Part shown: in pieces, positions 38,497 through 62,619 of the stretch
Numbering within the stretch: the first letter of the stretch is position 1
How the letters are laid out: each line of letters starts with the position of its first letter
Assembly (NCBI GenBank): GCA_003971905.1
Contig: RSEE01000110.1
Location: forward strand, 1 to 64,000
Origin: Moniliella sp. 'wahieum'
Lineage: Eukaryota
Reading direction: 5' to 3'
Length of the DNA stretch: 64,000 nucleotides
Made by a program: the position numbers and the translations under genes
Notes under the pieces: generated by a model
The model's input: only the letters and a program-made list of their open reading frames with translations
Told to the model about the DNA's origin: nothing
Database searches by the model: none

Positions 38497-41400
38497 CTAG
38501 GCTTCCTGTACCTCTTCGGTGTGCGGGGGCCGTGCACGCTCAAGGATCCCCAGGGGGACCAGGGACGGATCATCATCTGGGGGAAGGGGAGGCAGATTCT
38601 TCTCAGTACGCAATCCCATTTGATCTTGAGCCTTCGTTAGGACCGTAGCGTCAGGAGCGGCGCGAGGAGCCACGTTGGGTGGGGGAGCGGAAGGTGGACC
38701 CGAAGGTGGACCAAGGGGAGGTCCCCCTGGCCCAACACCCGCCTGAGCCGCTTTGCGCATCTGGATGGCTTTCTTTTGTTCGCGCCAAACCAAATAGGGA
38801 AAGAGGGCGAGGAGGAGGATGAGCCAAGCGGCCAAGATGACCCAACTGATGAAAATATCGATCCCTTTCCCTCGTAGAAGCAAAGCGAGAAACGCTTTAC
38901 GCAAGTTGTAAAAGGGCATAGCGTACGAGATGCGGTAAAACGTGTTGAGCATCGGGATTGGGTACCCGGCTCCCGAGACGTTGAGAATGACAAGAAAAAG
39001 TAACCCAAACGCAACGAATTTGGGTCCGAGGATCTCGAGGGCGACCTCAGTGCACAGTCCGAGGACCATCATGCCCGTGTACATAATGGCAAAAAAGGCA
39101 AAGAACCCACCCGCACCGTATCCCCGGAAAGAAACGTGGAAAGGGAGGTTAACCAAACTAAAGAGAAACGCTACCAAGAAGTTGGTAGCAAGAGGGATGA
39201 GCAAGCGCAGCAAAAGCAAGTGCTTGAACTTGAGAAAGGGAAGGATTGGTTGCCGAGCACCAAAGAGGGCCATGGTAATGTTGAATGCCAAGAGCAATAT
39301 GTAGATCAAACCAACAAAGGTGGTGGCAACCGTGACGGATTGATTAAACGGATTCACGTCAACCTCGGTAAAGTCAACCGCGTGGCCAATAGTCTGAGGC
39401 GCAGCGAGGGCCAAGTTGATATTGTTCCGTAGGGTCGTACTGTCATTGTCCGCTACTCTGTTGCCAAGCCAGGTGGCAGTGATGTTCAAGTTGAGCGCAT
39501 CCATACTCTCAACCAAGATCTTTTTCGTGGGGGCTACAATGCTGTCGTGCAAGGCTTGGTAGTTGCGTGCCGTAGCGTACCAAATGGTCACTACACCTTG
39601 GGGGTTCCAATTGCCATCACCAGTTGCTTGAGCGTTAAGCAGAGAGGTTGTTGCATTGTCCATAATTTGAACGACGATCCATGCCTTTTGGTCGGTCTTG
39701 AGGGTCTGAATATGCTTTCGTTGTTGGGGAACATGTTCCGTGAACGGCGCTCCCAATGGAGACGGTCCGGGTTGGACTTGTTATCACTGTTCAGAAAGGC
39801 GTTTTCGAATGTAGAACCAATCTGGTAGTCGTTTTGATCGCCGTTGATCACGAATCCTACCAGCTCGCGACTGGTGAGCTTGTACAACGATCCCCACTGT
39901 GTAGTGTGCAGAGTGTCAGTTTTCAAAACTTCATCCCACAAAAACAGTAGTACCAAGATGAAAAGGTGTATGCCCCATGGAAAGGAAACGATACTTACAA
40001 AGATGGGCACGATGCCCCATACGACAATGATGGAAAGCATGGCAATGAATGGTAGGTAGCCATTGAAGATGGGCCGAAAAAGAGGGCGTAACTTGGGGTC
40101 GAACAAGTCATGACTTCCAAACTCAAGAGGAGGTTTCCCCCCAGGTGGGCCGCCGGGGGGAGGAGTTCCTCCCATGGGAGCTCCTGGAGGGCCACCAACA
40201 AGCTTGGTGTCATCCGACATAGACTTCTTGTGCCCTGTGGGGGCTACAAGGGTGGCCATACTAGAACGATGGGTTGACATGAACGACTTGGGTTTGGTGC
40301 CCGGGTCCAAGAGAGAGGCCAGGGATTTGCGGTGAGAATCGACAAGTGTGGCTGTTGATGCCCGAGCATGAATGACTGACGAACGGAGGATCCCTCTGGA
40401 CTCTGTTGGGGTTGACACACCAGACCCGGGAGGGGAAGCGAATCCGAGAGGAGGAAGATTGATTGGATCCGTCTCACTGTGCTGGGGAGGGGGAGTCCCG
40501 GCCTCCTGCGGGAGAAAGTAGGAGACGCGCCTTAATGAACGTGGGGTTCCATGGGAAGCCGAAGAAGTAACTTTAGCAAGCGCTGACGCTTGCTGTCCCT
40601 CAGTACTTTCCAACGCATCATGCAGGGTATCAGTTGTGTGACTGTTGATTGCCATAGCACTCGGTACGTGTGGCATGGTTGAAGGATGGGGGCCTACAGA
40701 GGGATCGCGATTGTCAACCGCCCAAACATTTCTGGTCGAATCCGTGGTGGCGTGAAGGCGATCGTTCAAAGGTAACTGATGCTGGTGTTGGTTCGAAAAG
40801 ACGCCTTCGGATCCTTCGGTGAGATGTCGCTCAGTTTGCCCAAGGTGTGGGGTGAGAGAAGAGTAGTAGTGTTCTCTTCTGTAGGCCGCCCAGATGGGGG
40901 GAGAACGTAGTCCTTCCCGTGTTGTGCCCATGCGTGCGGGCCAGCGTGCGAGGTGGGCGAAGTCGCATAAAAGCCAGACGATCTGGTCCCAGGAGCAGAG
41001 GACCCTGATATGAGGGGCACATTTCTCACATCACCTTGACAAATGCGTTGCCCAAATGACTCGCTGTACTCAAAGCCAAGTTCGGTAGCTTCTTGCTGGG
41101 CGTCTGACGACGCTTGCACCGTCTCCAATTGAGGAGGGATGGACCGTGTCGGCATGATATTTGTTGCAGGGGACGGATGGGTCACCGCCGATTCGAGTGA
41201 CAAGTCCTCAATCGCCGAGGTGGGTGCCAGAGAAATGCTTCGTGGCGACAGAGGTGATGGCCGTTGGCGCTCGACATGGAGATCAGCCGTCTGAATGGCC
41301 GGTAGAGGAGCTGGCTCTTGTTGAGGCCGCCGCAGGGGCTCCGGATCAAGCGTCTCAGGGAGAGATGTGGGTACATGCTCATCTCTTATCTCATTGACCT

Positions 41401-44208: not shown

Positions 44209-47200
44209 TTAAAAGGAGAAGACACCTTTGGACCGGGTCCGCGACCCCCCAAACACGATAAAGTTGACTGCCGAAGCGCCAAACAAGCCCACACTCAACC
44301 CCATCGCAGTCGAGATGAGCGTTTCAGCGACCTGAAATCCGTTCTGGAACGTGGTGGCGGTCGTGGTAGAAGAATTGCTCTGGGCAAAAAGTAGTAGGCC
44401 TCCGCCGTTGCCCAACCCCGAAGGCAACTGGTACAACATCCCTGGCACACTCACCACAACACGCGTCCATCAAAGAAGCGACCATAGAGCGATGCCAGCA
44501 CACCCACTGCCAAGCTACTCAGCATGGCCAAAAAGTCCGAACGGTTGGACAATGCGGGCCGCTTGCCAGCAAAGTGACTCACCACCCAACCAATCGCCGC
44601 GATGGCTACCATCACGGGGAATTCTTTGCGGGTCGGCTTGGCTTGGTTGCGCAGCGAAACACAGATGCTGTATGCGGGTACCACGAGGAAGGCCCAGTAC
44701 AAACTTACCGTTTCCCGCCACGGCTGGCCGGGGTGGTCTTGCATCGCCTTACAGGTGGCCATGTTGGAGGGCAAGTTCATATCCTGGGACGAAACCAAAG
44801 TCCACATGCCGATCCGATCGAGAGTCCAAACCCTGGATCCGAGGAGGGGTTAGTACACTTGTCCACCCTACAGAAACAAAAGGAAAAAGACGGGTACGCA
44901 CCGAGAAGCATACTGTAAATGCATGCCCAGACCAAATGGACACTGCCAGCCATGACAGATTTGCTCTGCAGTTCCAACGCCGCCGTCAAAAATAGGAAAC
45001 CTGGTAGGATGAGCACGACGGCACCACCAGCCACGGCGCCATAACACCAGTACCCATTGCCATTGTTGAATGCGGCAGCAGCCACAAAGGAGGCGAGACA
45101 GGCCATCATGATTTCCACTCCGCTGGACAGCACGTCTGAGGTGAGGAATTGTTGGGCGATGACGACCAGTGCTCCAAGGGGTGCGGCGAGCAAGCCGTCA
45201 ATCAGTGACCCGTGGAAACCCATGTCCCCGACAGCCATCAAACCCGAGCACAAAAAGCCAAGGATGATCTGAGGGATGCGCCCAATCAAGGGTGGCTTGT
45301 GCATGAGTGCATCCAACTGTTTGCTTGCCTCTTCCACGCCAATCTTATCGTGAATAACGTTCCAGTAGATGGTGTGCATGTCGGTCAACTTGGCTACAAG
45401 CAAGAGGGTCAGCACCATTCGAAGGGGAAGAAGCAATAACGTACAGATATCCAGACCACCCCCCTGCTTGATGAAGCGAGTGTCGGACGTGCGGGTCATC
45501 TCATCTGTGAAGGAGAAGAGCATGACCGAGGGGAGGTAGATGCAGTGGCAGTTAACGTCCAGTACCTTGGCAGTGGATTGGATGTGTGACTCAATGCGAT
45601 GCGTCGGCGCGCCAAACATCATCAACGCGCGAGCCAGTTTCAGGAGAAAGTCTTGCCGCTCCAGAATGGCAGCAACGTGCAACGTGATCTGTTCGAGGTA
45701 AGTCAGTGGCCAGAACTCTCTATAGAGCGATGCGCCCAGCAGAGAGGTACTCACATAAATCTTTTCTCTCTTCCTGTGCTTGCGCTTCTTGAGCTTCTTG
45801 ACCCAGGCCCGGCGGGAGTCGGAGGTATCCCTAGCATGCTCCCCAAACGAGACGCCCAAATCAGAGCTATTGACCGCATAGGAGCCCGTGGTCGTTGGTG
45901 CACCTCCGTGATGAGGCCGGATCTGGAAATAATCCCCAAACTCGCTTGCCTCCTTAGCGTCCCCCCCTCTTGCAGCAAAGTGGCGGAAGATCCCGTCTTC
46001 CACTGAATCGACGAGTTGAGAGGCGCAGGCGTGATTTGTCCTGGTGTAGAAAGAAGGCTCCCACTTCCCATACGCTGATGGGGCGAGAAGGGTGCACTGG
46101 CATTGGCCAAAATCTTACGGTTTTGCTTGAGCGTTTTGGCATTAATCTCTGGAAGGAGGTAGCGCTGCAATTTGAACCCGGGTCGGCTTGGGTTGGGACC
46201 CAAGGTAGCATGGTTCGGACTCACAGCGCCGATCAAGTTGCCCGTGCTGGCCACCAAGGCACCAAACACACCTGCGCCATTGCGTGCGGCCTCAGGACGG
46301 TCAAATCCATCGAAACCATCATGGCCCATGATGGTACTTCCCTTGCCTCCGAGGAAGGAGAAACTGCTCTTCTTTTCGCTGGGGAAATGAAAATCACGCA
46401 TCTCGGGCGGAGTCGTTAACGGGCGGCGGACGACCCTTGGTGCCATGGAGCGAGGCGGCTCGTCCTCTTCACTGCTCTCTTCGTACAGAGGGGAGGACGT
46501 ATCCTGCCCCGGACGTTGGTGGGACCTAGCGTCCCTCTGTTGCTGCTCATAGAGAAGCAACAAGGACCCCAGCACGCCTCCCGGTAAGTTGGCGCGAGGC
46601 TCTCCTTTCCCCTCTCGCCGGTGGTCCAGGTTATGCGCCTCTAGCAAGGCGGCCGCACGACGTTGGTACTTGCTTGGTCGATAGGTGAGCTGGGCACCTT
46701 CCGAGCTACCATCTGCCTCGACATCGGCAGGTTGCTTCACACCAAACGCATCCCGGACCTTGGCCCAGCTTTTCTGTGCAGATTGAGGGGCAGCCGACTT
46801 ATCATCGAGGACCTCAGCCGACTCATCAGTGTCGTTGAGGTTGACATATTCTTTCGGAGGGGATTGGAAGGCACGGTACAGGAACGGGTCTTCCTCCCTC
46901 TGCACCGGCTGCATCTCCATCGCCTCGGGCGGGTCAAAGTGCAGGGGGCCGGGCTTGTTGGGCCGCTGCAGACTGGGCGAGTGGGGTGGGTGGGGGGTCA
47001 AGGGCGCAGCGTCGAGAGGAGCCGGGCGAGGCGGACCGAGGGACCCGGTCCCAGGGGAGAGGGCGTGCGTGACACCTCCTTCCCCTTGCCGGAGGAGGGG
47101 GGGGAGGCGTGCGTGGGGGGCACGAGCTCGGGAATGGGTGGAGCTGGCGCAGGTTGGCCGTGAGCTGAGCCGACCTGGGGTAGCTGACCTGGATCGGGGG

Positions 47201-48773: not shown

Positions 48774-49161
48774 GCCCACAGGGCCATGCGATGGAAGTAG
48801 GCGAACGCGGTCGGTCGGGCGATGCGGAAAACTCCGCCTGGCTTGTCCGTTCGTGTGAACCCACGCCTTGTTGACTAGCGTGGCTGAGACGCTGAGGACA
48901 TGCGTGTCCTAACGGAGAAGCCCATGACATTTCCGCGGCGGAATCTTATCTGATCGCTTTGGTTTGGTTATACCCGGTAATGGACTCCATAGTTATACGG
49001 CCTCCGAGCGGGCGAATAGGATGTGAGGCTACATCTAACCAACAGTCGTCAGAGTGTATACTAGTCCACCGAGGAAGGAATGAGACTATAAATGCAAGTG
49101 TGCATAGATGCATATGCCAAGCGGCAGGCAGAGAAAGAGATGAGGTGGGGAGAGAGAGGGA

Positions 49162-50783
49162 TCAGCCAAAGAGGCGGAACCCCTCATCATTCGGCGCATC
49201 GTCCTTTTCTGGTTCCGAGGCAGACGAAGCGGCTCGTTGTCCAAATGGAGAGTCTGAGCGGCCCCGGCCAGCTGAGAAAAGAGTCGGTCGGTTTGGCCCT
49301 GGCCCCAGGTGGTACGAGGGATGGGGGGCATAAAGTGCAAAATTTTCTCGTGGGTTTCGTACCGCAACTTGCGGCCCTTGGAAGCCTTTTGGTCGCGTGG
49401 TGCCTTGGGGGCTTTGTCCCTTCCTAGGCCAGCCGGGGGGAGGGTGATTCCGGCCTCGCCCATCCCATTAGCCACAGCTGCCCCACCAGCTGCACGCGAC
49501 TCGATCAATTCACGCAAGAGCGAGTGATAAAAGTCGGTGTCGTCAAACGCATCCTGGCCGGAAGAAGAGACCTCCTCCTCCCCAGGCAAACGAACCCGCG
49601 CAGGTCCACGCCACGTATGTGCACGTTCGCGCAGGCGGCCAATGGCCTGCGGGTGCAAGGCACGTTCAATCTGCGCCGTGGCAGATTGGTTGATGGCTTT
49701 GAATCCGCCCGACGGTGCAAATTTGTCGGCTGCCCCACTGAGTGCAGGGTCCGCACGAGCACGGGACGACCATTTGTCGAGAACTTTACCATCATGCGCC
49801 CAGGCTGCTGACGCTAGTGGTGTCACATCCGTCAAGTGGCCCTCGAGTGCGTCTCTTGCGTCCGACAACGAGCTAAACTTGCGTTTCTTACCACGGTACT
49901 TGTCGGCGACGTCGGCCATGTTTTCGGAAGAGCCCCATTCTCGACATGAGTTCGGTGCGCAACTGAATAGCTCAGATGATACGTTGAGCAGTGCGCAGCT
50001 ACCTCGACCAATTTCCCTTGGAGGCGTCGCCGGACCCAGAGGCGGTCAGCAAGGAGAGCACGTTGCTCTGTATCATGGGTCAGCAAGACAACCCTTCACC
50101 AGCCAGTCACTTCTTCCATTGGAATCAAAGGTGACGGGCAGAAAGAAAAGGAAAGGAGGAAAGAACACGTACATCTACACCCTGCAATGGAGCCGTGACC
50201 TTTTGTGATCGGATACGCAGATCAAGCGCCAGCTCGTACGCAGCCGTTGCTTCTCCACGCTCTTTCCCCGCTTGGCGTCCTGCTCTCGTTGACTCGCCAG
50301 GCTTTTGGCCAACTTGTCCTCATCAGCTTGTTGGGCCAGGGTAGGCCCCTCACCAGCATCGCATCTTCGCCTTCGTTCCTCATCCCCATCTTCCTCCTCC
50401 TCCTCCTCCTCTTCGTCCTCGTCGTCCTCATCATCCTCATCCTCATCTGCCTCTTCCTCGGCTCCGACTCTTGTGAACTCGCATCCTCTGATGCGCTGGC
50501 ACCCTCCTCGTCTTCGTCCGACTCACTGCCCGCACCATCCTCCGAGCATCCCCAAACATCTGGGCAGACGTGGTGGGCACCCCCGCATAGCTCGTCTGCG
50601 GTCCCGACCTGCGCAATTTGGACGCCGAGTCGAGGTATCGCCATACGTCGCACGACCGAACGCAAGTCCTGCGCTCGCTGCTCTTTGCGGCTCGGCTCCT
50701 GCGCCGCTTGGGGCGACTGGGGCACCGACTCGTACTCGGATTCGCTCTCGGACGAAGATCCGGAATCGGCGTCGAGGCGGCAT
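49162..50783 (-). CDS. BFR2: Bfr2/AATF small-subunit processome protein
   Basis: Acidic N-terminal tract; VLDKWS, FDDTDFYHSLLRELIE, KASKGRKLRYETHEKILHFMPP, C-terminal GFRLFG*. Confidence 0.9.
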
Positions 50784-51124: not shown

Positions 51125-52512
51125 ATGGCCACCAGCACAACGGGGACGTTTAGGATCATCTGTCGGCGCCCGAAGATGTATCCCTCGCCTCGTACAACTA
51201 CCTTTCGGGCCAAGCCCTGCCCGACGAAGATGCCGACATGGACGTCGACCGGGACGAGTTGGACGAGGCGGAGGATGGAGAAGGCGAGGCCAAGGCCGAC
51301 GACGCGTGGCGATGATGCATGCCAAAGTGGCCACGGCTGGTGAACATGTCGCTTCGTCAGCAACCTATATGCGGGACATGGAACGTACTTGGCACCTCCC
51401 CCGGTGCTCGTGCATCGGGACAACAAGATGCTCATGCGGAGGCTATGGCGGTTGATGTGGACGATGGCGCCGACCCTTCCCGTCCTGAAGACGAAGGGGA
51501 GAAGAGGTGGTGAACCTAATTTACTCTTCTCTTGCTGGTCCGGTGATTCGGACAAACAAACTTGTGTCGGTCCGGGCGCTCGGGCACGCTATGCGCCCGA
51601 GGTGGGCGATTTGGTTGTCGGCCGTGTGGTGGAAGTGCAACCTGGGAGCAAACGGTGGAAGGTGGATATCAACGGCCGATCTGAAGCTTCTCTCTTGCTC
51701 AGCAGCATCAATTTGCCCGGGGGCGTGCAGCGGAAGAAACTCGAGTCGGATGAACTGCAAATGCGTGCGTTCTTCAAAGAAGGCGACCTACTCGTGGCCG
51801 AAGTCCAGCAGTCAATCACGACGGCAGTGTTATCCTCCACACCCGCAGTCTTCGGTACGGCAAGCTACGGAACGGGCTTCTGGTGGCGGTCCAACCGCAG
51901 CTGATCCAACGGCTCAAGTCGCATTTTGTCACCCTCTCCAAGGCCCAGGTAGACCTAGTGGTGGGCATGAACGGATACACTTGGGTCGCGAAGCACATTG
52001 CGTTCGATATGGATCAGGCCGAAGCTGAGGGCAAGCCTACGGAAGAACCCCCTGGTCATGCGCAGGAGGCTGAAGGTCTCGGGGGGCGTGGGATCGGATT
52101 TGACATTGATGCCGGGGACGGTGTGTATGGCGACCAAAACGAGGTGAGTAGCCAAAATCCCCCTCCTCCAATGGAGATACTGACTTTTTTGATTGTGTAG
52201 TATACCCCCCCTGAACAAAGGGTGGCGATCGCTCAGGTGGCTCAACTCCTCGTCTTGCTCTCCGATCGCCACATTCCTATTTCAGAAACGATCGTTGAGC
52301 GAGCCTATGAACTGTGGACAAACCAGTTTGCTTCGCGCAAGTCCACGGGGGCAGTAGGACAAGCAGCATTTTACGATCCTGCGAACGATGCGGCATCCCA
52401 ACGGAGGGATACGCTTTTGGCTGCCGCACGGGAAGCCGAAGCATTGGTCGCTGGCCCAAAGGGCGATGAGTTGGTCCAAGGTCTGTATCGATCTGGCGTG
52501 CTGCGTGCATAA
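51125..52512 (+). CDS. RRP4: Exosome cap subunit Rrp4
   Basis: [24 protein letters not shown]...WKVDIN....[45 protein letters not shown]. Confidence 0.93.
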
Positions 52513-52627
52513 GAACCCATCCACTGTGACATGAAACCACGAGTGGGCTGCATTGGAGACATAGACATAAGACGGACAAGAAAGGGAACATGATGAGAAG
52601 GCAAATGGAGGAGTCCACATGGACGCT

Positions 52628-54932
52628 TCATGGCTCTGTCCGTACTGTTCGCCGGGCCGTTGCGGTGCCAATCTGAGTCGCATTGACCTTGGTAGCAAAG
52701 CGAAGCGAACAGAGTGTTTCGTTCTGGTGCTCGGCCAAGGGGGAGAGGTTGAGCAGCATGAGGCTTCAGGGGAGAAGGAAGGGAAAAGGTTAGTTGCCAC
52801 CTTGAAATGGGCGCACGGGGAAAGAGAAACACACGTCTTTGAGTTGCCTCCGAGCGAGTTCTTAAGCAGCCAAGTGAGCGTGAATTGCGATACGGCACAT
52901 GCTGCTCGGCCTTGGCGGAGCGGGAACCCGCTTTACCCAGCGCTGCAATCACGTCACCTAAGGCCGAAAGAGACTTGTTGATGCTCTGAGCCTCGCGCAG
53001 GCGCGCTGGATCGTCAGCCGAGCCTGAGTTGGACAGACGCTCTGAGCCTGCCAGGTCGACCAGGTTAAGCACCGCTTCCGTCTTTTCTGCCGTAGCCTCA
53101 TTGCGGCCTACCACAGCCAAGGTAAATACACTGTGGGAACGCGAGGAGCGGGCGTTCATGGCGGTAGCGGCGACTTGCCGCTTAGCCTGGGCTCTTGCCA
53201 AAAGAGTCATCACCTGGTCTGGGTTATGCAGTGCCACCTCTTCGGCCCCCACGACAATTGTACGTCCACCCTGACTGTCGTGGCGGATCTCGTGTCGCCC
53301 CATAGCCGATGCTGGATCGTCGGAGGTTGAGGAAAGAAGATCAATAATACCATCAAGATAGATCTCGACCATCTGGCCTGAAAGGTGTACTGCCATCCTC
53401 GGGCTTTGAGCTGATCGGCCACCGACCACAGCATCTGCACCGTTCGGGGAATAAGACCAGCTGATGGATCGGAGAGGTAGCACTAGTAGGCGAGCCAGAG
53501 CGAGGAGGACCTTCGAGTGTGTACGTCTTACCACTGCCCGTCTGGCCATAAGCAAAGATGCAAGTATTGTACCCGTCCAACACGCTCTGGGCCAGGTGTT
53601 CAACCTCGCCAAAAACATCGGTCTGGGACGCATGGGGGCAGGACCCGATCAAAGGAAAAGGAATGGAGAACGCTGGTGGGCGTACCGCTCGCACTCTCCC
53701 CCACGATGGCCACCTGCATTTCCCTTGCCTCCCGTGGGAAAGGCTCCGGATAGCGTATGTCCGCCATGGTGCGGTCCCCCGCGCCATTCTGGCTGCCAGC
53801 ATTAACAGCTGGTCGACGCGGGCGACAACTCGAATGTTACCGCGTAGCTCTTGGACTTGATTGTGAAGCTTTCGACGCAATCGCTCAGCCGCTCTCAGCT
53901 CCTCTTCTTTATCCTGGACCAGACGTTCTACCTCAGCCAACTGAGAGCGGAGGGAAGAAACCAACTGACGCTCATGATCCACTTCGTCCCGCAGACCATC
54001 CGCCTGGGATCGCAGCACACCCACTTGGGTCTCAAGTGCCAAGTGGCCTGCGGTTTGCTGAGCTAAAGCAGATTGAAGAGTGGAAATCGTCTGCCGCTCT
54101 CGCTCCAGCGCAGAGGCAGACTCGGAACGAACGCGGTCCAACTGGGCAGACCAATCGTCCCGGTCGCGCCGATGAGTGTCACGAAGTGCATCAAGCTGTG
54201 CCTGTAGCTGGATCTCACTGACGCTTGGCCCCGATACCGAGGGGGACGCGGATCCCCATTGGGCTTTGAGCTGGGCAAGCTCCTCCTCGTGCCGTTGACG
54301 GTCCTCTTCAAACCGAGCGATGAGGCCCTGCACCTGCCCCTCGAGAGCGTCAACGCGGTTTGCTCCTCGAGCACTGGCAGATGGTGCAGCAGTGCTAGCA
54401 GCCCTCAGGCTGCTGGCGGCCGAAGCCGAGACAGAGCGGGAGGGGAAGTAGTGGTGGGGCGTTTGGCGGGGCGACTCGAGGAATGCGTGGCTAAAGGCTC
54501 GCGCCGGGGCCCGAGACCGCGGCTGGCCTGAGTGCTGCTGCTGACGACGCGATTCGATTTGGTTTTCGGTTGTGGTTGAGTCTTGGTGGAAGCGGCAGCT
54601 CGGACGGGGTTCGCACGGCGCGGGGTGCGGGAAGAGGCGGGGGCGGGAATGCCCTTGGGGGCAGCAGCCGGGGGAGCGGGATGCGATGGCACAGGGAGAC
54701 GCGAGCCGCCAGGCATGATCCACGACGACTTGATGCACTTGCTCGACTCACTCGCTCAACTTGACCGACTTGATCGACTAGATGGCCTTGCTCAGGCTGG
54801 CCGGGACGCTGCGGAAGATACCAAACACGATGTGGGGGCACTTTCTCGGGCACACCAGTTGTTGCTTGCCTCTACGCGGAAATTGCATAGCGCGCAGCAG
54901 GTCACGTGCCGGGGTGCAGCGTGCTCCTGCAT
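52628..54932 (-). CDS. KAR3: Kinesin-14 C-terminal motor (Kar3/KlpA-like)
   Basis: Coiled coil then neck [66 protein letters not shown]; start codon uncertain. Confidence 0.92.
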
Positions 54933-61494: not shown

Positions 61495-61961
61495 TTACTT
61501 CAGGACCTTCTTCTTGCGCAGCTGCGACGAATGGCCACACTTGCGCTTCCGGCAGTTGGTCGCACGGGGAGGAAGACGAGCGTAGCACTTGCGGCAGATC
61601 TGCTTTTCAACGTTGGTCTTCGAGGCGAGCACCTTGAGCGAGGGCTCAATGATACCACCGAGAAGGCTAAAGACATATAACGCGAAGTACGTCAGTACAC
61701 TTCAGAAGCAGATCGCTGCGCCCCTTGAGGTTGGGATCAAACATACCTCAGCGACATGTGCAACGTCGAGTCCTTCTGGATGCCGTAGTCGGCAAGGGTG
61801 CGGCCATCGGCGAGCTGCTTGCCAGCGTAGAGCAGGCGCTGCTCGGCGGCGGGGATGCCGTCACGCGCAAAGTTGAGAGCCTTGACCGACTCGACGGTAG
61901 CCTCGGGAGCCACAGCCAGGGTCAGGGTGTTGCCCCGAACAGAGTTGACGAAGATCTGCAT
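61495..61961 (-). CDS. RPL40: Ubiquitin-like leader fused to ribosomal protein eL40
   Basis: Exon 61961-61747, intron 61746-61667, exon 61666-61495; eL40 part [52 protein letters not shown]; 76-aa Ubl ending SLLGG. Confidence 0.95.
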
Positions 61962-62619
61962 CTCGAAAGACCTGGAATGAAAAGGAGAGGACAGCGCGTC
62001 AGTACATCAAGATCCCAACATGCGGCAAGAAGATGTGGCGAGAAGGGAACCCAAGTCACCGCCCTTGGCTGGGACAACCCTGGACCACCGAAGTAGAGGG
62101 TTCAGGACAAGAGTAGCCGCACCCATTCTGGATCCACATAGCCAAAGACGCAATTGCGTCTCATCTGGCCCAGAGCCGACTCAAGTTGGGACTCACCTCA
62201 GATCGCTTGGTGTGGTGGACAGCAAACCGCCAAGTCGGGCTTGCGAGAGCAGACAACGGGCATCCGGCCAAGCGAGCGCACCCCTGCGCTCAGAACAAGG
62301 CACTGCCCCTGTCCCAAATTGGCCTTCACGGCCGCAGCAGGACATCGGTGTGGTGCTCGCTCCCCCATGCGCAGATGTTTTATTGCGCCGGACCAAAAAG
62401 GGCGACCAACCCTAATACCATTTTGAAACGAATCTTTGACGCGCAATGTTTCTATTTGTCAACTCAGCTACTCGTCCGGCCGCGTGCTCTTAGCACGCTT
62501 ACGGAAGCGCGCGAGTATAAAACGCGACGCGAGAATGATGGTTCCCCCGATACGCAACTGATTGCACAGGCAGGAATAACAACAATGATATGCCAAACAG
62601 GTTACATCCTGGGGAGCGA

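Follow-up and report, generated by a model that had tools for sequence, protein, structure and literature searches.

Structure of the Ub-eL40 gene

The stretch of DNA analysed here, positions 1 to 64,000 of contig RSEE01000110.1 of the fungus Moniliella sp. 'wahieum' (hereafter the window), carries on its minus strand, from 61961 to 61495, a gene of the Ub-eL40 type, in which a leader with the ubiquitin (Ub) fold is fused to the ribosomal protein eL40, and this leader has moved far away from the sequence of ubiquitin. The gene has two coding exons with an 80-nt intron between them, and its coding sequence totals 387 nt, i.e. 128 codons plus the stop, in frame. The 128-amino-acid (aa) product consists of a 76-aa ubiquitin-fold leader and a 52-aa eL40. 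As a reference for canonical ubiquitin, the leader was cut from the named Ub-eL40 protein P0125 (Cryptococcus depauperatus); we take its sequence to be that of yeast ubiquitin. The features of the gene are the following:

61747..61961, minus strand: coding exon 1 (215 nt), from the ATG at 61961-61959 through leader residue 71 to the AG that opens codon 72; Pfam family PF00240
61667..61746, minus strand: 80-nt intron interrupting codon 72 in phase 2; donor GTATGT, branch-like motif TACTGAC, acceptor TAG
61495..61666, minus strand: coding exon 2 (172 nt), with base 3 of codon 72, the end of the leader, eL40 and the stop
61654..61666, minus strand: start of exon 2, with base 3 of codon 72 (AGC, Ser72) and leader residues 73-76 (LLGG); presumed cleavage site
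61498..61653, minus strand: the 52 aa of eL40 itself, including the four zinc-site cysteines; PF01020; 88% identity to the eL40 of P0125 by tblastn
61495..61497, minus strand: stop codon TAA

Both parts of the fusion are recognised by Pfam. Exon 1 matches PF00240 (ubiquitin) over profile positions 1-67 of 72, with an E-value of 2.5e-21 and 75.6 bits against a cut-off of 25.4; for the exon-2 product, the match is to PF01020 (Ribosomal_L40e), with an E-value of 9.9e-29. The Gly-Gly of the leader stands directly before the eL40 start IIEPS, which is the processing site of Ub-eL40 fusions. As a whole, the product thus has the architecture of these fusions: a single N-terminal ubiquitin-fold domain followed by a 52-aa eL40 with four cysteines. 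As for the splice sites of the coding intron, the chosen TAG holds the first AG after the branch motif, and use of the next one downstream would break the frame. Alternative splicing that would restore a canonical RLRGG tail was ruled out, the LLGG being encoded contiguously with eL40.

The eL40 part shares 46 of its 52 residues with the eL40 of P0125 and keeps the four zinc-site cysteines. Where the eL40s of named Ustilaginomycotina usually have YNC(D/E)K, the window eL40 reads TNVEK and thereby lacks one non-ligand cysteine, and their C-terminal LRPKKKLK is LRKKKVLK here; eL40 also matches forms found in named basidiomycetes. A tblastn search of the 64-kb window found neither a second ubiquitin nor a second eL40 sequence; the next matches have E-values of 1.3 and 0.072.

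Divergence of the leader from canonical ubiquitin

Compared with the leader of P0125, the window leader is identical at 42 of 76 positions (55%) and carries 34 substitutions (45% of sites), which are distributed across the whole domain without frameshifts. Four of the seven lysines are lost (K6N, K11N, K29L and K33R), and K27, K48 and K63 are unchanged. The hydrophobic patch formed by residues 8, 44 and 70 reads V/L/S (L8V, I44L, V70S), and the tail is SLLGG (R72S, R74L), with L71, L73, G75 and G76 kept. Also retained are F4, I36, R42, G47, R54 and H68. An alignment to human polyubiquitin from the Protein Data Bank (PDB), made with HMMER, displays the same pattern and is gap-free over residues 1-69. 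Canonical ubiquitin being a near-invariant sequence with seven lysines, the 8/44/70 patch and an LRLRGG tail, the window leader falls outside it. The coordinates of the gene, the spliced 76-aa leader, the 42/76 identities, the lists of lost and kept lysines, the V/L/S patch and the SLLGG tail had all been given by an earlier reading made from the sequence only (hereafter the sequence-only reading), and each was reproduced in the comparison with the P0125 leader.

R72 is the main residue by which the ubiquitin-activating enzyme (E1) selects ubiquitin, and position 72 of NEDD8 is Ala. The loss of R72 in the window leader argues against its activation by E1 and its conjugation, as judged from this one position.

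Predicted fold

AlphaFold2 was run on exon 1 with an alignment of 15 sequences. The best model has a predicted local distance difference test score (pLDDT) of 93.0 and a predicted template modelling score (pTM) of 0.79, and its strands and helix follow each other as in ubiquitin. The pLDDT values of the five models are 93.0, 92.4, 69.5, 63.6 and 60.7. When compared with the PDB by Foldseek, the 50 best matches are all ubiquitin entries, at 51-59% identity, with query template modelling (TM) scores of 0.92-0.98 for 49 of them and of 0.29 for the remaining one. According to these models, the leader is predicted to keep a beta-grasp fold that is superposable on ubiquitin.

Age and maintenance of the derived leader

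A search of the exon-1 frame against a large protein collection gave 382 matches with E-values of at most 0.001 among 384 candidates, of which the best 120 were considered. Among these, three open reading frames (ORFs) from separate assembled read sets are 87-91% identical to the window leader, and the other 117 are 43-63% identical. The three close relatives all end at HMSL followed by a read-through R, which indicates the same intron position. Over residues 1-70, the window leader has 32 derived positions, 30 of which are non-canonical in all four sequences (window and three relatives), with an identical derived residue in all four at 21 of them. Over the same residues, the four leaders share 57-63 of 70 positions with each other vs. 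35-38 of 70 with canonical ubiquitin. These shared derived positions imply that the divergence predates the common ancestor of the four and that the new sequence has since been kept.

The same comparison bears on the possibility that the divergence is an artefact of assembly or sequencing, or the product of a wrong splice model. Nothing was found in favour of this explanation, and it is effectively refuted: the same derived residues occur in three independent assemblies, the substitutions spread over the whole domain with no frameshift, the donor and acceptor are unambiguous and keep the frame, and the LLGG is contiguous with eL40 in exon 2. The sequence-only reading had likewise dismissed indel noise as the cause, which the intact frame and the same derived leader in three independent assemblies bear out.

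As a rough yardstick, the window protein with a DUF3533 domain has five closest database relatives at 58-66% identity (24 matches), which may belong to other organisms than the relatives of the leader. Its best named matches are Tilletiaria anomala with 43% identity, Malassezia with 39% and Meira miltonrushii with 38%. From these matches and the form of eL40, the source is placed tentatively as a basidiomycete near Ustilaginomycotina that lacks a close annotated relative. Taxonomic hints from a protein atlas stayed at phylum level and conflicted, with Ascomycota most frequent for the DUF3533 clusters and Chordata or Ascomycota for the kinesin clusters, and they were set aside as uninformative.

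Concerning codon usage, the whole coding sequence has an effective number of codons (Nc) of 32.4, a G+C fraction at third codon positions (GC3) of 0.81 and a fraction of A-ending codons of 0.01, and the leader alone has values of 34.6, 0.82 and 0.00, respectively. Across the 18 long ORFs of the window (ATG to stop, at least 250 aa), these values range from 47.8 to 57.1 for Nc, from 0.54 to 0.67 for GC3 and from 0.12 to 0.21 for A-ending codons. Within the window, codon bias peaks in the Ub-eL40 gene, both in its leader and in its eL40 part, and from its codon usage the gene looks highly expressed. A pseudogene was ruled out by the intact frame, the strong codon bias and the conserved sequence.

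These data also bear on whether the window gene is a redundant paralogue, drifting under relaxed constraint with a canonical Ub-eL40 elsewhere in the genome doing the work. Three points would suit such a copy: the analysis is confined to 64 kb of the genome, the leader changes at a much higher rate than ubiquitin (17 of 70 positions vary among the four relatives), and the eL40 part carries the unusual substitutions described above. However, the frame, the splice signals, the four zinc cysteines and the Gly-Gly are intact, the strong codon bias extends over leader and eL40 alike, and, with 30 of the 32 derived positions common to four organisms, the derived state is old and maintained. Moreover, if the concerted-evolution model outlined in PMC10457151 applies here, gene conversion with a canonical copy in the same genome should have homogenised the gene. 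We consider a drifting paralogue unlikely.

eL40-linked leaders in other fungi

The eL40 part was searched against proteins of at least 99 aa, which gave 1117 matches among 1144 candidates; the results below concern the best 120 of these. The sample is biased, as it consists of clusters at 90% identity, holds only proteins of at least 99 aa and over-represents aberrant gene models. No match among the 120 exceeds 92% identity over 89% of the query, and the peculiarities of the window eL40 occur in none of these proteins.

Seventy-eight of the 120 have 76 residues upstream of eL40, 32 have a shorter upstream part and ten lack the motif that was used. Fifty of the 78 leaders score 72-76 out of 76 against canonical ubiquitin. 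Another eight score 66-71, including three full-length leaders with 6-10 changes and five with mis-modelled N-termini, and 15 were found, by reading of the sequences, to be mis-spliced or otherwise mis-modelled. The remaining five are full-length and truly diverged (identities are to canonical ubiquitin):

Microsporum canis P0233: 41/76, tail LDLPGG
Pleurostoma richardsiae P0147: 41/76 by an ungapped count over one short deletion, tail SLRGG
Synchytrium endobioticum P0188: 45/76
Synchytrium microbalum P0173: 46/76
Metagenome protein P0124: 55/76, tail RLLGG

All five end in Gly-Gly directly before eL40. They are only 46-53% identical to the window leader and belong to unrelated fungal groups, which argues for independent events. 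Across the independently diverged fungal leaders, M1-F4, T12, K27, R42, G47, D52, L56, Y59 and T66 are invariant, and L73 and the terminal Gly-Gly are kept in the window leader and in the five diverged leaders reaching the junction. Six junction residues could be read in 110 eL40 relatives: 75 end in LRLRGG and none has the tail of the window leader.

In named Ustilaginomycotina, the leaders of eL40 are canonical, with 74/76 in Parajaminaea and 75/76 in Malassezia globosa, and those of Moesziomyces, Sporisorium and Pseudozyma are canonical wherever the gene models are intact. Several basidiomycete or unassigned gene models read through the intron, showing LVLR, intron-derived residues and then SLRGG (e.g. 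P0127, P0136, P0160, P0171, P0177 and P0201), and they reveal the same phase-2 intron in codon 72. Since the position and phase of the intron are those of canonical basidiomycete models, the window gene is to be seen as an ordinary Ub-eL40 orthologue with a changed leader and not as a new fusion. The exon-1 side of codon 72 is AG in the window gene vs. the CG required in the read-through models, so that R72S would be explained by a single base change there. Compared with canonical fungal Ub-eL40 genes (UBI1/UBI2 of S. cerevisiae, and P0130 and P0141 of Ustilaginomycotina), the architecture, the Gly-Gly junction, eL40 (88%) and the intron position are alike, whereas their leaders are canonical at 74-76 of 76 positions vs. 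42 of 76 in the window.

Many basidiomycete Ub-eL40 database models are mis-spliced at the codon-72 intron, either by read-through or by a wrong first exon, P0127, P0136, P0149, P0152, P0160, P0167, P0169, P0171, P0177 and P0201 being examples among others. In such models eL40 comes with a junk insert or lacks the ubiquitin domain, and an automated survey could take them for cases of lost or diverged leaders.

A probable in-cis role of the leader

With a probability that we put at about 0.68, the window gene is the Ub-eL40 (RPL40/UBA52-type) gene of its lineage, the ubiquitin moiety of which would have become a ribosomal ubiquitin variant with an in-cis role, cleaved off and probably not conjugated. 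Under this explanation, the moiety would have escaped both the homogenisation and the selection that hold ubiquitin invariant. The 76-aa beta-grasp leader, being made first, would help in cis the very basic eL40 to be productively made and to fold, and a deubiquitinase-type protease would remove it after Gly76, before or during the entry of eL40 into the pre-60S particle. Having lost R72, R74, V70 and four lysines, the released leader would probably be a poor substrate for the ubiquitin E1 and for ubiquitin receptors, and conjugatable ubiquitin would then be supplied by other loci (polyubiquitin, Ub-eS31). We infer the cis-chaperone role, the cleavage after Gly-Gly, the lack of conjugation and the presence of canonical ubiquitin genes elsewhere in the genome.

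The pattern of kept and lost residues would fit this division of functions: the retained L71, L73, G75, G76, I36 and F4 fit cleavage, and the lost R72, R74, V70, K6, K11, K29 and K33 fit a loss of conjugation and recognition. For the protease USP36, O'Dea et al. 2023 (PMC10611586) describe hydrophobic pockets that hold L71 and L73, glutamates that contact R72 and R74, and a narrow channel that limits cleavage to a terminal diGly. As for the in-cis role, Martín-Villanueva et al. 2019 (PMC6721733) report for yeast that productive expression of eL40 depends on the Ub moiety of Ubi1, that SUMO can partly substitute for it, and that uncleavable Ubi1 is lethal as the sole source; the Caenorhabditis leader is cited there in support of a chaperone role. 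By analogy, these yeast experiments, as that paper presents them, would show an in-cis leader role to be sufficient.

Alternatively, the released leader could be a lineage-specific ubiquitin-like modifier, conjugated via its Gly-Gly and perhaps forming chains via K48 or K63. Its activation would fall either to Uba1, with changed kinetics, or to a different E1 in which a small residue 72 is accepted. The Gly-Gly, K27, K48, K63, R42, R54, H68 and G47 are retained, and the derived sequence is conserved in four organisms. Conjugates are reported for FUBI, another ribosomal leader (PMC10611586), and Dalhuisen et al. (PMC10457151) leave residual modifier roles open for the ubiquitin variants fused to eL40 (UbL40) in Plasmodium. 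Against a modifier stand the loss of R72, R74, V70 of the I44 patch and four of seven lysines, and the fact that the retained residues are largely structural and also invariant in independently diverged fungal leaders; R54, moreover, is N in one close relative. No dedicated E1, conjugating enzyme (E2) or protease turned up in the window, which was scanned by the ubiquitin/eL40 search and by Pfam on the 18 long ORFs. A modifier of this kind therefore seems quite unlikely. Still further from being probable is its stronger form, a new fungal modifier born from the eL40 fusion, in which Ser72 (cf. Ala72 of NEDD8) redirects the released leader from Uba1 to another E1 and K48 and K63 allow chains. 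If this were true, the lineage would have a private conjugation signal, stoichiometric with 60S subunits.

Several observations weigh against a cleaved, non-conjugated in-cis leader, or weaken its evidence. The kept K27, K48, K63, R42, R54, H68, G47 and Gly-Gly are what a still-conjugatable modifier would show. Among the four leaders, 17 of 70 positions vary (one relative has R54N, another L15H), and on these sequences constraint on the derived leader is far weaker than on ubiquitin. The read-through R of the relatives is compatible with AG or CG at the end of the exon, and the comparison with them covers exon 1, not S72 and L74. Concerning the fold, the AlphaFold2 alignment included canonical ubiquitins, so that the model leans towards them, and three of the five models reach only 60.7-69.5 pLDDT. 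As for codon bias, the ORFs used for comparison are mechanical, only four of the 18 having a Pfam family, and Nc is biased low for short genes.

The sequence-only reading had suggested that the lineage turned its Ub-eL40 into either a non-conjugated folding and assembly leader or a distinct modifier with its own processing protease. Of these, a diverged ubiquitin acting mainly as an in-cis leader is retained as most likely; the distinct modifier with its own protease found no support, none being in evidence.

Comparison with known ribosomal ubiquitin variants

According to the account in PMC10457151, a divergent UbL40-encoded ubiquitin was earlier known only from Giardia, to which two Plasmodium lineages (vivax and ovale) are added, whose moieties have changed at some 15% of sites or more; UbL40 variants are described there as extremely rare. 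Divergent ubiquitins encoded by UbS27a are listed in the same source for Caenorhabditis (UBL-1/RPS-27A; Jones & Candido 1993) and for 12 other species (Catic & Ploegh 2005), and are described as occurring in many protists. For these UbS27a variants, including the Giardia structure of Catic et al. 2007, the citing sources are PMC10457151, PMC6721733 and PMC8122580. The authors of the first of these (Dalhuisen et al. 2023) raise the possibility that divergent ribosomal ubiquitins are more widely spread than realised.

By the definition in that paper, a moiety that has diverged with fold and fusion kept, the window leader is a divergent ribosomal ubiquitin variant. It resembles the UbL40 variants of Giardia and Plasmodium in that a ubiquitin fused to eL40 has escaped near-invariance and retained its fold, and their function as ubiquitin is, as described, likewise open. 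The Plasmodium variants, however, are reported to have all seven lysines and an almost complete 8/44/70 patch, whereas four lysines, V70, R72 and R74 are lost in the window, where 45% of sites are changed vs. about 15% in Plasmodium and the host is a fungus. As for the UbS27a variants, they too are ribosomal ubiquitin leaders that have turned ubiquitin-like and are read, in the sources cited, as keeping an in-cis or chaperone role, but their partner is eS31 of the small subunit instead of eL40.

FUBI is described as 36% identical to ubiquitin, with a two-residue N-terminal deletion, fused to eS30 and cut by USP36 and USP16 (PMC10611586). The FUBI-eS30 (FAU) of holozoans and the window product share a ubiquitin-like leader with a diGly end, which in FAU must be cut for subunit maturation (PMC8354635, PMC10611586). 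In contrast to FUBI, compared here by its published description, the window leader stands on eL40, has no indel relative to ubiquitin and is 55% identical to it. Homology to FUBI was ruled out by the different partner, the different identity level and the absence of an indel. By analogy, the window leader would resemble FUBI in role and not in descent, deriving from ubiquitin in place. The label 'FUBI-like' chosen in the sequence-only reading is thus apt for a functional analogy but not for descent, given that the eL40 partner, the Gly-Gly junction and the codon-72 phase-2 intron are those of canonical genes. Likewise, FUBI had been named there as the known diverged ribosomal leader; closer precedents have been published (PMC10457151), namely the divergent UbL40 of Giardia and Plasmodium and the divergent UbS27a of Caenorhabditis and protists.

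Ubiquitin is a textbook near-invariant protein, and its fusions to eL40 and eS31 are nearly universal. Fused copies that have drifted separate the constraints of being a leader in ribosome production from those of being ubiquitin. The window leader is an already known kind of escape from this invariance, and its interest lies in the degree of divergence, far beyond that of the printed UbL40 variants (45% vs. about 15%), in its conservation in at least four organisms and in its fungal host. Taken with the other fungal database examples, it points to such escapes being commoner than published reports indicate, in what looks like a recurrent, undescribed pattern in fungi. The residues invariant in the diverged fungal leaders, with L73 and the Gly-Gly, make up a candidate minimal set for the in-cis and cleavage functions. 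A full-text literature search, with subscription journals largely outside its reach, returned no description of a fungal eL40 with a diverged ubiquitin leader.

Other features of the window

Upstream of the coding region, splice-signal motifs point to a putative intron in the 5' untranslated region (UTR):

61972..62196, minus strand: putative 5'-UTR intron, 225 nt, GTGAGT ... TGTACTGAC ... CAG, from motifs only

Its acceptor CAG would lie 10 nt upstream of the ATG, and its branch-like motif TGTACTGAC is identical to that of the coding intron. The stretch between this acceptor and the ATG is similar in the relative P0031.

The window has a G+C content of 58.0%. Pfam families were assigned to four of its 18 long ORFs:

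38500-39663, minus strand: DUF3533
44780-45622: ThrE
49089-49919: TRAUB/AATF C-terminus
52374-53633: kinesin motor

The 14 without a family could represent genes specific to the lineage, pieces of exons, or spurious frames such as a G+C-rich genome produces.

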